From: Negaprion brevirostris
Lineage: Eukaryota
DNA length: 64,000 nucleotides
Reading direction: 5' to 3'
Assembly (NCBI GenBank): GCA_030324005.1
Contig: JARDVH010000132.1
Span: 66,669,491 to 66,733,490, forward strand
Shown: positions 3,621 through 50,015 of the stretch, piece by piece
How the letters are laid out: each line of letters begins with the position of its first letter
Position numbering within the stretch: position 1 is the stretch's first letter
The notes under the pieces: model-generated
What the model saw: the letters and a program-made list of their open reading frames with translations, nothing else
What the model was told of the DNA's origin: nothing
Databases searched by the model: none
Position numbers and translations under genes: made by a program

Positions 3621-5529
3621 GACATTAAGATAAGTCAATGATGGATGGTCAAATGGGGATGTGAGGAAGTGCTGAAGCAGACAGATAGGTGCACCTGCAA
3701 AGTGAGTTAACATATGGAGTGATGTGCTGGGGTAGGCTTGGGAAGGCAGTACAAGGTAGAATTGGTGGGCATTTGCAGGCCAAGGGAGGCATCAGTAATG
3801 TGTAATGTTGCCTTGCAATGATATGAATCCATTTCTGCAGATGCTTTCTGCACTGAAACTATAGACTATCCTTTAATTTTCATCCTGAAGCTAGATACAA
3901 ATTCAGTGGCTGTATTAAAAAGCCACTGACAAAGGTACAACTAAAAATTCTAGGTTCCTCCTGGCTGCTGGATGATCCAATGCCAGCGGGCCCAGAAATT
4001 TAAATCAAGTCAATAATAGTAAATCTTCTCCCCATTTACTATTATTGGAAAAGAGATTTTCCAAAATACTTTCCTATTAAGTGAGTAAAAGTAAGCAGAG
4101 CAAGTAATACCCCAGAGATTTACATTTTGTGCGGTGCACATGTATCTTGGTTTGTCTAAAATTCTATAGAATTAACCAACATTTTCACTACATGCAGTAA
4201 GTAGTATTTATTCATCCTTTAGTATTATGTTATCATGTGGGATTACATCACAGTTAAGTGCTACCTGCATTCAGGAGTAACTATAGTCAGAATTTCCCCC
4301 TGCATCACCAGGAAAATCATAACAAGACAGATATTCTGCATGAGCCTTTACCTCCTGAGACTTTCTTGTGAGGATGTGGTAGGCCTGAGGTAAAATAAAT
4401 TGGCCAATATCTTGTTAGCTTTGGCCAGAAAGTTAGTTACCTGGCAAGGCTCAGGCCAGAACCAACTATGTTTAAAATGGGACCTGAATTAAGTTGCAAT
4501 GCAATGGCTATGAAGAATTATCGTCTATTGTTTCAATTTTAAAAAATGGAGTTACTTGCTCTTAAATGTTTCAGTAGTACTGAAGCAACATATCAGTTTT
4601 CAGAAGCATAGCCTGAAAAATCTACATTGTGACATTACTATACAAATATTTAATACACTTTCATCATTGTTATTCTAACTTAAATACCAGCCTGTTTATC
4701 TTAAATGGCTTAATACCTCATGAACATAGTGATTGAAGAATTATATTCAAATGTGATAGGTACACAAAATACAGAACAGTATAGTTTCCTGTTGACTGTT
4801 ATCATTGCAATAAAGTTTGTCAAGTAATTATTTTAATATAGCTTTTGAGAATTGAATGCTATTCATTTGCCCCAGAATTTAGGCACATGGACCATGATTC
4901 ATGGTAGCTGCTAGAGACCAGGAGGATAAGGCACACAATTTGTCTACCCAAATCAACTCCCTGATAGTAGCAGGGCCACGAGTAGACCCCGCACAGCCAT
5001 GGATGCTGTTGTTGTACAGACGCACTGTGCACACTACAGGAGGTTGAGTACATTGCAAAGAAACTAAGTGCACCAAGCAACCCTCCATTTCTAAAAGTGC
5101 AGTCAATGTAAAACAGAAGTTCTAGCAATGCACTACAGGCTGCTGAATAATTATTACTCAGGGACAAGGTTAAGCACATCAGGCAAAGATGAGGCTCCCC
5201 AAATTAATAATGCAGTGCTAAATGAGGAATGTAGAGACTTCAAAGTCAGGAAGATGACCAATGACCGAATTGTCAGTCGATAAGTAATCAGCACTGGATT
5301 GCCACTCTGCTTACCCTAAACTCAAACTGCACATTTCTCACCCAGACATCTGACCTGGTCATGCTGAGAGGCGTGCAACATAGCAGTTCCACGTGCTCCT
5401 TCTGTGCTGTGCAGTAGTGTTGGGGAAAGTGAAACTACCGCCCATTTTGAAGCACCAGCTAATCTGAAACAATAAGCTTTCAGGCACTTCTTCTTCCTAC
5501 TGCTCCTCCTCTTCCAGCTGTCATGCCAG

Positions 5530-33700: not shown

Positions 33701-33937
33701 TGCATTTCTCAATTTTATGAAGAAAGTACAGAGCAAAGCAAAATTTCTTTTGATTATGCTTGTTTCAAACTGATGAGATGTCAGGTAATGATGTATTTTG
33801 CAAAAATTGGGATCTTTGTCCCAAGGTAAGATTAGGANNNNNNNNNNNNNNNNNNNNNNNNNNNNNNNNNNNNNNNNNNNNNNNNNNNNNNNNNNNNNNN
33901 NNNNNNNNNNNNNNNNNNNNNNNNNNNNNNNNNNNNN

Positions 33938-44698: not shown

Positions 44699-45232
44699 GT
44701 AAGATGTATTTTATATCCTAAGAATTACATCGACACATGATTTAAGTATATGTAGAGATCTTCAACTTTAAAACAATAAGTCATGGTAATTCTGAAACGA
44801 TGAAATAAACTAATAAAATGCTTACAGTTATAAAGTCCTAGTATCCTGGCTGTGATCTAATGAATGTCAGATTATTAAAAGATTTTGCATACTCATAAAT
44901 TAATTTGTGTCTGAATACAGTTGATAATTAGAACATATTTGGATATTTTAAACAAATTTTAATGAGCTGATCACAGGAACTTTAGTGGAACGATCCTCTA
45001 CACACAAACTAGACATAATAGTTTTGACGTCATAATATTAGTCCATTTACTTCATAATAATTCTATACATATTAATAGTACAGTAAATGGGAAAATGTTA
45101 ATTTTGAGTTACCATTCTTTAATGGTAAGCTTAACTCATTCACAGTTCATTCCCAGTTCATTAAATTCTCTTTAATTAAAAGAGATAAAATAAGTAGATT
45201 TTTTTCAACTTTTTCTCTCATTTCACATGCAG

Positions 45233-45286
45233 GGTTCCCCTGGTCCCCGTGGTATCCCAGGTCGTGATGGACCAGTTGGCGGCATG
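45233..45286 (+). CDS. COL1A2: COL1A2 exon 22
   Basis: 54 nt, GSPGPRGIPGRDGPVGGM. Confidence 0.95.
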
Positions 45287-45446
45287 GTAAATTTTGCTTT
45301 GTTATGCTTAGTGCATCGAGTAAAAAATGAGAAACCTGTTTTTCATTTTTAAGGAACAGTGAGATTTTCTTCATTAGGTGATTAGAATGGTTCATTTATG
45401 TGAATCATTCAGAATGATGCTACCTTATTTTGTAATTCATTTCCAG

Positions 45447-45545
45447 GGTGCACCTGGCAGACGTGGTGAAGCTGGTCCTTCTGGTGCCAAAGGGCCTCCT
45501 GGTGACGTTGGACGCCCTGGTGAAAGTGGTGTGCATGGTGCTCGG
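45447..45545 (+). CDS. COL1A2: COL1A2 exon 23
   Basis: 99 nt, GAPGRRGEAGPSGAKGPPGDVGRPGESGVHGAR. Confidence 0.95.
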
Positions 45546-46212
45546 GTGAGTGAAATTGAAATAACTATCACAGCAATAGCCATAGATGTACAGCACGGAA
45601 TTAAACGTTTCTTGAATGATATTTATCATTTATTCATATACTTTTGGATTTATTTCTCACTCAGATATACCCCCTAGTTTTTTAAATGCTAATTAATTGT
45701 AAATTACATTTTAGTAGAAACCCCCAGAATTAAGTTGAAGACAATAGAAATTATTTCTTTATTAAAAAGTACCATGTAACTTACACATTTTAACCTATCT
45801 CCTGATTTTGTAAAAATAAATTTGTTCTCAAAAGAATGTATTTTCACTGATGTTGTTTTTCTTATTTCTTACTTTGGATATGGGCCGGATCTTACTGCCA
45901 GGGTGGGCGAGGCTCGCAGAACGGAATTCTCCGTTGGCCTCAGGCGGGATTCCACGAGCCTCGTCCGAGTGAGGTCATAAAATTCTGCATATGATGTTCC
46001 ATTGGTTTTTCTAAGATTTGAACACTGTTAGAAGCAACAAACTTTATTTGGACAAATGTGATTGTTACCACGCCCAATTAAAGTTAATCCTTGAGTTTTT
46101 AAAAGAGTTTGCGCAATGAAATAAGTGTCATTGAAAATATAAAATAAAGTATCTTTGCTGTATACACGATGGAATGAAATCTAAAATTGCTTTGCCTCCT
46201 CAACATTTATAG

Positions 46213-46266
46213 GGTCATATTGGACAACCTGGTAGACCTGGCACTGTGGGAAATCAAGGTGTTGCA
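46213..46266 (+). CDS. COL1A2: COL1A2 exon 24a (extra 54-nt Gly-X-Y exon, candidate mutually exclusive)
   Basis: catttatag|GHIGQPGRPGTVGNQGVA|gtaagt; six intact triplets, phase 0. Confidence 0.8.
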
Positions 46267-46306
46267 GTAAGTTTTCTCACCTTACAGTAATGTGTTACTT
46301 TTTCAG

Positions 46307-46360
46307 GGTCTCGTAGGTAGTGCTGGCATTATAGGTGCTCCAGGCAAATCAGGTCCTGCT
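46307..46360 (+). CDS. COL1A2: COL1A2 exon 24b (closer to canonical exon 24)
   Basis: ctttttcag|GLVGSAGIIGAPGKSGPA|gtaagt; resembles human GLPGSPGNIGPAGKEGPV. Confidence 0.88.
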
Positions 46361-47557
46361 GTAAGTTGTTTTTGAGGTTTTCTGCTCCCCATTCTTGACA
46401 GCTTATTCAATCTAAAAGTAGGTTTGAATCAAGCATGGCAAATTGCATGGGGATATTACATGACATATGTTGCAGAACATCTAAAAATGAAAAGGCTTCA
46501 ATTGTTAGGTTTTGCTAACGTCTAAAGTAACAACTCTTTTAATTAAGAAGCAATTGAAATAATTTATTAATATAGGTACAGTAACTGCAAACACTGCGCC
46601 ATTTAGTGATACTAACAATTACTTATTTATGATGCAATAATATTGCATACTCATTATTATTTAACAAACGCTATGTCCAGTAACCCGAAATAATATTTTC
46701 TTTCCATATTGTAATTGAAATTTCCCCCCACACAAAACCTGTACTTCACAATTAATTCAAATATATAATTATGGTGATTGATTACCCAACTCATACTTAT
46801 TTTAAAAATACATGTTTAGGCATAATCCATATATGGTGTTGTGGAATTCAAAATAGTCTCTTAAATACAACATTGCAATCACACATGTATGAGAAGGCAC
46901 ACAAGGAATTCAATGTATTAAAACAGTATTTGGCTACATAAAAGACAAAAAGTCAGAATAACCTGTTTGAGAAAGTAAGTGTCCATATGGAAACATTTTG
47001 AATGTTAGATTAGAACCCTATTATGCACTGAGCACAAAGAATTCTGAATCATAAAGAGCATCAGCCATCTCAGTACAATTACAGCAGTCGATTTTGATTT
47101 GGTTGCTGTTTTATGTGTTACTGTCAAGTGATCATTAGAGTATTATTAAGATTATAATATCCTGATTTAAATCCCAGCCCCTCAGACCAATACATAGACC
47201 AGTAGATTAAAGGTATGAATCCTACTGCAATTCACGTATCACTGGATATATTATAGGAATAATAGTAATTCTCAGTTGTGTTCCCCAAACTACAATTATC
47301 TTCAAAATAGAATGTCATCCTTAGAATACTAAAGCGTACTAATGTGTTAGATTTGTGCATTGTACCTATGCCAACTACTATGAAATTACAAATGAATAAC
47401 CCATGCGGAATATTTACTCAAATGTTTTTGCAATAAGTAATAACATGCATGGAAGTAAAATAATAAACCAAAACACAATTAATTGACTTATATGCAAAAA
47501 TAATCTCCAGTAACTTGTGAAGAGCATTGTTTCATTGTCTAAGATTGTACATTTTAG

Positions 47558-47656
47558 GGCCCAGCTGGTGAAGAAGGTCGCACTGGTCCCCCTGGTCCTG
47601 CTGGCCCAAGAGGTCAGGCTGGTATGATGGGCTTCCCTGGTCCAAAGGGTGCTACT
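47558..47656 (+). CDS. COL1A2: COL1A2 exon 25
   Basis: 99 nt, [33 protein letters not shown]. Confidence 0.95.
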
Positions 47657-48648
47657 GTAAGTGACAGTTACATTTTTTGTCAGTAAATAAATTCTAAATA
47701 TTCTGTCTTAACATTTTCTGAGTAGCCTTTACAGTTGATCTATAAATGCCTTTGTTGCAAACTGAAATTATTTAGATGATTTTTAAATAAGCGTTTCTTT
47801 AAAAACGTTTATATTATAGCCAAATCCTTGGTGTAATCTAAGAATTTTAGCTTAGATGCTTAAAAATGGCTTTAGTTGGATTAGCAATAAGTGATTGGAG
47901 GTTGATTCTATGACTAAAGCAACGCAAAAGATGTTTGCTGGGGTTTTCTAGCTCCACTGTAGCAAGATCTGCCACAGGGGAGTGGCGGGCCTGCTAAAAG
48001 TCCATTGACTTTCAGCAAGATGGGGAGATCCCTGTGGCAGGCAGAGCTGGAACTTCCTGGCCATTGTTACTTATTGGCGAGCTAAATGTTTAACGCGCAA
48101 TTGTTTGGGTTGTGCCTGAGTGATTTATCTCTGCCGGTTCTGGCATTTTAACATAACTAAAACCAGCTCCTGAAACTGAATGGCAAAATTGACAGCCTGG
48201 GCAATATAGATCCAGAGAACTAGTTGTTATTGTCTCAGTGCCAGAAGTTTGAAACATGGAAAGCAGCTTTAACATTGACTGCACGAGCTCTGCCATATAT
48301 TGGCTGGAATTTTCTATCTGTTGGAATTAGTGGGACCCCAACGTGCTAAGTCCCTACTGTGGGAAATTCTGTTGACAACGAAGGAAACCCCACAGTTGGA
48401 TAATGTCGGGTCGCCTCCGCCATTGGGAAATACGCTGTAGCGGGTGCAAAAAGTCCCATCCATTGTCTGGTATTAAGCCCCCACATTTTGGTTCAGAAAT
48501 AAACCCTATTTGTCAAGTTAAATAAAATATAAGTTTATTTGAACTAATTTAGATGCATCCAAACGAGATTTTTCAAAATTCCAAAGATTAAAAAACTTGT
48601 AATGGGATCATAACTTATTCTTACTAATATATATGTTTTATTTCCTAG

Positions 48649-48702
48649 GGTGTACCTGGCAAACCTGGTGAGAGAGGCGCTACTGGTCCTGCTGGTCCAA
48701 GG
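48649..48702 (+). CDS. COL1A2: COL1A2 exon 26
   Basis: 54 nt, GVPGKPGERGATGPAGPR. Confidence 0.95.
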
Positions 48703-50015
48703 GTATGTTTAATGCCATTAGTTCTTCTGTATGAGTTTGAACAGTATTGTTTACATTATTTTCCATATAAAGTCAATGGGTAATACACTCAAGCTTTAAT
48801 GTGTTGTATTTTCCCAGGGACACCTACACTGGGGCCAAATGGAGCCCCAAATCACCACCCACTAGGAGCAAGACAGTAGGGAAATTTTCCCAGAGGCGGC
48901 ATCCTAATTGCCTGCCTCTCTGCTCACCAGCTAGTACCGTGAGTGTCTCCCATTGCAGCCAGCACAATCAAAGGGCAAGCATCTGGCGAGCCTGGGCTAT
49001 CCCATTGGGAAAGGTAGATACTGCTGAGTAACATTGGAGACCATATGGGTGTCTCAACTTGGAGGCCAAAATTTTAATAAAAATTTCAGAAGGGCCATGC
49101 CTGTAAGTCTGTAAGAACAGAGTCGAAACCACTCTGGCTAGAACATATGGCCTTTCTTGCTGGCAGGCTCTCAGTGGAACATGGGGCCATCGGCTTTGAT
49201 AGCTCCAGGGCAGGTCACCTACATGAAGTTGGTGCCACCCACAAGTGGCAGAGGGTGGGGATGGGGGGCTCTGCTATCAGCAGTACAGCAAAATAAGATT
49301 GCCCTGTTTGTAAATCGGATACCACCCTCCATTCAGAAGGTGGCCAATGTGACCTTGGAAACTTCTCCAACAGAAATACGCATGTACCCACTCCCTACTA
49401 TTTTCACAGATCCCCTGTCTCCAAGCCCATCATCACAAGGTGAAAAAAATTCTGCCCAATATATTTACTTAGGCACTTAAAGTAAGAGTGCGCTTTCATA
49501 GAACAGTTTAAGTACATTACCCCCAACCCCCACTGGCATGGAAATTCTGCCATGAAATACAGCCATTTAAATTTTAATATGTCTTCTGAAATTCTTTCCT
49601 CCAGTACCTTAGCAGAAATATCAACTGATTTATTTCAGATCGGTTTATGGCTCTACTAACATGATGAACGAGGAATTTCAGACCATTGTATTAGCACACA
49701 TATGCAATATTCCATCATATAATTCAAACTGTAGTCCTTTTAGTCCAAAATGGTTATCTCTGCCTTAGCCTTAGACTATTCAGATAATCAAAAGATTCTC
49801 AGAAACAGGTAGCTAGACAATACAACACTGTAAGGACTGAAGTGGACCTTCAAGGGGAAGGTACTTAAGAAAAAGTATGATAATATCTATTACAATCAAA
49901 TGGCAGTTTGATGTTCTATCAGGCAATCTGGTAAAAACATGCAATATGCTTACATTTTAGTAGCCCACCCTTCAATTANNNNNNNNNNNNNNNNNNNNNN
50001 NNNNNNNNNNNNNNN

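Follow-up and report, generated by a model that had tools for sequence, protein, structure and literature searches.

The gene and its exon map

The window, by which we mean the whole 64,000-nucleotide stretch of Negaprion brevirostris DNA analysed here, contains one collagen gene, on the + strand, as found when both strands were scanned for exons of the form AG-(Gly-X-Y)n-GT. Exons 7–12 and 15–48 were recovered, with sizes as expected for the clade A pattern, and the 3' end of the gene lies in the next stretch of the assembly. The position of the second C-propeptide Cys is occupied by Ser (among the matched database proteins, it is Cys in 21 of 24, Ser in two and offset in one), a replacement that we take to be the hallmark of alpha2(I). 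Both the exon sizes and the Ser hallmark fit a COL1A2 orthologue, and the gene is, judged from its sequence, of putative col1a2 type. When C-propeptide exons were used as queries in two protein searches, the best identities were 74% and 67%, and neither search turned up a full-length protein that was closely related. The last C-propeptide exon (L002:6057–6197) encodes two Cys, of which one is presumably extra to the canonical pattern; presumably, too, the chain is missing the canonical second Cys and has another Cys near its C-terminus instead.

Helix exons 13 (45 nt) and 14 (54 nt) were not found between 30767 and 35329, relaxed scan included. A gap of 100 N at 33838–33937, between exons 12 and 15, probably hides both; if they were truly lost, the helix would be 33 residues shorter. 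In the alignment of exon 25 with rat alpha2(I), the match begins at chain residue 390 (helix residue 379), and exon 24 therefore occupies helix residues 361–378, the segment given in an earlier note on this DNA; exon arithmetic (with exons 13 and 14 assumed) also puts its start at 361. Used as a query, exon 25 matched three loci in G000: the window gene and the genes on C154 and C188, for which resemblance suggests the names col1a1-like and col2a1-like, respectively.

Two versions of exon 24

In the place of a single exon 24, two 54-nt exons lie between the 99-nt exons 23 and 25. The relevant features are as follows (organisms A and C and runs X1, X5 and X14 are introduced in the next section).

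45447..45545, + strand: exon 23 (99 nt), the common exon on the upstream side; X1 and X14 contain its join to 24a
46213..46266, + strand: exon 24a (54 nt, GHIGQPGRPGTVGNQGVA), apparently the derived version, without L2 and K14; join 46266>47558 in four of four runs
46267..46306, + strand: spacer of 40 nt, with the 24a donor and 24b acceptor back to back; no substitutions in the organism A contig
46307..46360, + strand: exon 24b (54 nt, GLVGSAGIIGAPGKSGPA), apparently of ancestral type, with L2 and K14; join 46360>47558 in X5
46361..46555, + strand: conserved intronic block 3' of 24b, with 0 substitutions in organism A
46361..47557, + strand: intron 24b-25, with low-depth unspliced contigs in four of four runs
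47558..47656, + strand: exon 25 (99 nt), common downstream exon, with GMMGFP at helix residues 400–405

The coordinates and peptides of the pair check out, and each exon has, as the earlier note claimed, AG and GTAAGT sites, phase 0 and six Gly, with 1 of 12 X/Y residues common to the two. The exons are identical at 27/54 nucleotides (13/36 outside the Gly codons), and they agree in length, phase and protein position (between exons 23 and 25), the features by which a mutually exclusive exon (MXE) pair is recognized. Exon 24a brings in His, Arg, Asn, Gln and two Y-position Pro; 24b has Lys, four aliphatic residues, and one X and one Y Pro. At any one position, an exon of this kind would arise by chance with a probability of about 1e-11. 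The stretch with the exon pair is single copy in G000, and a contig from organism A runs continuously across the end of 24a, the spacer and 24b; because this independent contig spans it, the arrangement is not an assembly error. That there are two intact exons 24 is thus confirmed.

The spacer is indeed 40 nt long; the next in size among the window's 36 inter-exon gaps measures 95 nt, and no gap in the col1a1-like paralogue is shorter than 101 nt. Reading through it gives the in-frame TAA that had been noted, and the CTCAC near the 24a donor has its adenine at +13 from that donor; further branch-point candidates lie at +18, +24 and +31, and a second AG at +20. Inclusion of both exons would indeed add 18 residues, since the helix length, summed by hand with exons 13–14 assumed, comes to 1014 residues if one exon 24 is used and to 1032 if both are. 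On a splice-site matrix trained on 70 sites from this gene and its paralogue, 24b scored higher than 24a both as acceptor (13.3 vs 10.0 bits) and as donor (12.1 vs 10.6), and the weak 24a acceptor fell at the 6th percentile of the 70 training sites.

Some further features of the region may be mentioned. The 24a acceptor has no AG in the preceding 63 nt (46149–46212) and is, like that of exon 25, one of the lowest-scoring acceptors in the gene. About 200 nt 5' of the 24a acceptor, intron 23 contains (at 45880–46000) a G+C-rich interspersed repeat of some 100 nt, with 38 other copies among 40 scored matches (2739 candidates).

Splicing of the two exons in related organisms

A search with 46213–46360 listed 19 runs from seven organisms and nine studies, none of them recorded as RNA. 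Four of the 19, presumed to be RNA, were mapped on 45200–48750: X1 from organism A, X8 and X14 from a single sample of organism D, and X5 from organism C, so that three organisms, three samples and three studies are represented, all from relatives rather than from the window's own organism. All four behave as spliced RNA, with GT..AG joins and an intron 22 depth of 0 in 4/4, from which it follows that they are not DNA.

The join 46266>47558 (GT..AG), which links 24a to exon 25 and skips 24b, is present in every one of the four (depths: X1, 285.9; X8, 6,536.4; X14, 1,309.7; X5, 18,262.8), and 45545>46213, from exon 23 to 24a, is listed in two of them, X1 and X14. The join from 24b to exon 25 (46360>47558) is found in one of the four, X5 of organism C, at a depth of 3,985.7. 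In this run, letters resembling exon 23 precede 24a, and a contig stops 4 letters past exon 23; 24a and 24b have a common prefix of exactly 4 letters, of which intron 23 shares 1, and the assembly forks precisely at the first difference between 24a and 24b. To account for the depth bin over 24b, a second contig of about 3,700–3,900 is required along the entire exon, and the depth of the 24b>25 join, 3,986, is close to this. The fork, the bin arithmetic and this join together imply that 23>24b>25 exists in X5 beside 23>24a>25; the 23>24b join is absent from the listed joins, and it is from these features that we infer it. A contig of X8 has 31 unaligned letters before 46311 (the letters themselves were not seen), which is consistent with RNA in which exon 23 is joined to 24b and the following intron is still present. 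An intron contig of X5 starts 29 letters inside 24b, and 24b therefore belongs at this locus.

Three of the five joins proposed in the earlier note as diagnostic were thus found in contigs of relatives, and a fourth, 45545>46307 (23>24b), is the one implied in X5; the fifth, 46266>46307 (24a>24b), which would mark co-inclusion, was not among the 15 of 18 joins seen, and neither was 23>25, in contigs that drop rare forms. (Beyond those in view, the contig data of the four runs hold 3 further joins, 35 loose ends and 96 pieces, and 239 substitutions and 45 indels besides.) Both exons are present and spliced in relatives, so neither of the outcomes that would have told against the earlier proposal (one exon never used or absent, or both always included together) was encountered. 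Alternative use is thereby supported at the RNA level in relatives. As to mutual exclusion, the alternative joins to exon 25 are observed (24a>25 in 4/4 runs and 24b>25 in 1/4), and the 23>24b half of the exchange is deduced as above.

It was unexpected that the exon commonly seen should be the divergent 24a and not the canonical-looking 24b. In X5 the 24a:24b ratio is roughly 82:18, a figure that is a hint only, because contig depth cannot rank gene parts; taken with the 4/4 and 1/4 runs, it hints that 24a is the commoner. Runs X8 and X14, with word shares of 0.25 and 0.17, do not carry different exons: both show 24a>25.

Low-depth unspliced contigs cover intron 24b-25 in all four runs, more than they do neighbouring introns, and intron 23 is mostly uncovered in three. 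It is likely that intron 24b-25 is removed late, and it may possibly be a detained intron; an unspliced intron 24b-25 together with a bare intron 23 suggests that selection between the exons takes place at the upstream acceptor.

Conservation and the relative age of 24a and 24b

Both paralogues (on C154 and C188) have one 54-nt exon 24 with L2 and K14, as in 24b; 24a has neither residue. In each paralogue a single exon 24 was found, leaving 24a without a counterpart, although N stretches in the flanking introns could hide a copy. Compared with exon 24 of the C154 gene, 24b matches at 36/54 nucleotides and 4/12 X/Y residues, a nucleotide score tied with that to one other C154 exon, and 24a at 32/54 and 2/12. 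The L2/K14 pattern and these matches point to 24b as the ancestral type and to 24a as derived. A profile made from 24b and the two paralogue exons matched mammalian alpha1(I), alpha1(II) and alpha2(V) chains of the PDB at the place that exon 24 occupies; as two of its three rows are paralogue exons, this locates the position and is not a test of 24b alone. The rat alpha2(I) chain was not among the listed matches of the profile search, and PDB searches with 24a or 24b singly gave only non-significant collagen-like matches.

The earlier note took the pair to be an old exon duplication, which could not be demonstrated: the 27/54 identity falls inside the background of 19–32 against other 54-nt exons, and a tandem duplication is therefore to be read from position, length and phase only.

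The organism A contig covering 46247–47587 has 32 substitutions, all at 46556 or beyond, so that 309 nt (46247–46555, made up of the end of 24a, the spacer, 24b and 195 nt of intron) have none and the following 1032 have all 32 (Fisher p 0.0004; 9 gap letters were unplaced). In organism D, the block 46311–46729 differs at 21/408 positions, compared with 63/616 in the distal intron (p 0.004). Organism C can be aligned over the proximal 440 nt, with 51 differences, and not over parts of the middle of the intron. Regulated alternative exons typically show conserved flanks, and 24b with its flanks is under the unusual constraint expected of such an exon. We also considered whether 24a is unusually fast-evolving (in organism A it has at least three substitutions, with two residues changed), and found no support for this: its differences in organism D (5/55) match those of exons 22 (6/56) and 23 (8/92).

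Comparison with known exclusive exon pairs

The nearest known case is exons 9 and 10 of let-2, the alpha2(IV) gene of C. elegans, which are reported to be mutually exclusive and separated by a 30-nt intron too short to excise (PMC2119826; PMC4165533). The choice there is reported to be under developmental control, with ASD-2 promoting the downstream exon from the downstream intron (PMC4165533), and the mammalian orthologue of ASD-2 is QKI (PMC3875643). The two systems share a collagen gene, two exclusive exons and an intervening intron too short to excise; they differ in that let-2 encodes a network collagen with an interrupted helix, whereas the window gene encodes a vertebrate fibrillar chain with uninterrupted repeats. 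The let-2 exons, of 108 and 111 nt with 57% protein identity, are described there as differing mainly in a Gly-X-Y interruption, unlike 24a and 24b, which are equal in length and have 1/12 X/Y residues in common.

Among vertebrates, a human MXE catalogue includes a 69-nt exon pair in COL5A1 (PMC5740500, supplement 3). Like 24a and 24b, these are equal-length exclusive exons in a vertebrate fibrillar collagen gene, but they are not Gly-X-Y. We take them to belong to the C-propeptide. A COL24A1 candidate in the same supplement pairs a helix exon with a 42-nt non-collagenous exon; none of the 27 collagen rows there consists of two intact helix exons from a fibrillar collagen, and COL1A1, COL1A2, COL2A1, COL3A1 and COL11A have no row in the 10 supplement files of PMC5740500. 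The main text of PMC8373072 makes no mention of collagen. The statement in the earlier note that no such switch is known in a type I helix held good in a full-text literature search, the coverage of which lay mostly outside subscription papers; annotations of related genomes could already list both transcripts.

Exons 2 and 3 of alpha-tropomyosin are a sterically excluded pair. In OGDH exons 4a and 4b, a donor-to-branch-point distance below about 50 nt is likewise reported to block joining (PMC7969005). Both cases have a distant branch point in a longer intron, whereas in the window gene the whole intron is 40 nt.

Proposed mechanism and its alternatives

We consider it highly probable that 24a and 24b are two functional helix exons used exclusively, so as to give two equal-length alpha2(I) chains that differ only at residues 361–378. 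Both chains would keep the same 1014-residue helix length. The exclusion would be steric, with the 24a donor and the 24b branch point too close to be joined: two reports put the limit below which joining is blocked at about 50 nt (PMC5740500; PMC7969005), more than the whole 40-nt spacer, and the candidate branch points lie at +13 to +31. Co-inclusion of 24a and 24b is judged improbable in view of the 40-nt intron, the 1032-residue helix that would result and the absence of a 24a>24b join from the 15 of 18 joins seen. A duplex and folding scan gave no clear docker/selector pairing (the best, at about -20 kcal/mol, was bulged and had no shuffle control).

Exon 24a would be the default: it emerges from transcription ahead of 24b, and U1 bound at the 24a donor would cover the 24b branch point. 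That 24b has the stronger sites and yet 24a is seen more fits this model of a masked 24b needing help. Such help might be given in some cells by RBFOX/QKI-type proteins acting at the conserved block downstream. This block contains GCATG (46433), TGCATG (46444) and CTAAC (46515), the first two of which we take to be RBFOX-type and the last QKI-type motifs, and RBFOX bound downstream of an exon promotes its inclusion. The two GCATG lie 73 and 85 nt past the 24b donor, and none of the 34 other introns has two within its first 200 nt (Poisson p 0.014, before correction for six motifs in seven regions). The block (46361–46555) is accordingly presented as a candidate RBFOX/QKI-type enhancer of 24b, a lead and not a result. 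The scheme further supposes that both mRNAs would be translated into fibril collagen, and that the window's own organism would splice like its relatives. In its fullest form, which we offer tentatively and with rather more doubt than belief, an RBFOX/QKI-controlled, tissue-regulated switch of 18 alpha2(I) residues in the second D-period would yield two fibril types from one gene, the derived segment being the default and the ancestral segment frozen for particular tissues.

It might be supposed instead that an exon replacement is in progress, in which 24a has taken over and 24b is a leftover, occasionally spliced but without a function of its own. X1, X8 and X14 have no 24b>25 join, and contain 24b only in intron-containing contigs (depths 21.3, 54.7 and 13.8, against 286, 6,536 and 1,310 for 24a>25), and 24a differs between species at a rate like that of its constitutive neighbours (organism D: 5/55 vs 6/56 and 8/92). 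Against this, 24b is spliced at substantial depth in organism C and retains six Gly and good splice sites; moreover, in organisms A and D fewer changes have accumulated in it and its flanks than in the remainder of the intron, whereas a leftover would decay at the intronic rate, and we regard this explanation as unlikely. We give still less weight, judging it very improbable, to the idea that the spacer-24b block serves mainly as a brake on alpha2(I) output, through slow removal of intron 24 or RNA containing a stop, with the 24b protein secondary; if true, the balance between alpha1/alpha2 heterotrimer and alpha1 homotrimer would be altered. Unspliced contigs lie over intron 24b-25 in all four runs and over intron 22 in none, a contig of organism A continues across the spacer, in-frame TAA included, and the conserved block is largely non-coding; but the intron-containing contigs amount to only about 0.1–7% of spliced-join depth, a long intron will be caught unspliced more often than one of 160 nt, and a brake has no need of an intact Gly-X-Y frame or a clean 24b>25 join.

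The least probable of all, to the point of being hardly credible, is an artefact, whether a misassembly or two near-identical genes or alleles with one exon each. The assembly is a draft with many N gaps, and the RNA came from other organisms; yet there is one locus in G000, a run of organism F contains 12/12 sampled words, the organism A contig spans 24a, spacer and 24b, and in X5 both exons join the same exon 25.

Implications for fibrillar collagen

Because any change in length breaks chain register, the type I helix encoded by each gene is regarded as a single, unvarying sequence. An equal-length exon swap escapes this limit, since local chemistry changes while length stays, and it is likely that one gene here makes two equal-length collagen chains with different local chemistry. 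The earlier note drew attention to the GxMGFP site near the swapped segment; it does indeed start 22 residues after the segment, but an effect on the site is without support because it is identical in both isoforms. For collagen proteomics and annotation in these animals, one peptide region would have two forms. The exon pair is a natural experiment on the role of alpha2(I) residues 361–378 in the fibril, and shows a route by which a new helix segment may replace an old one without a broken intermediate.
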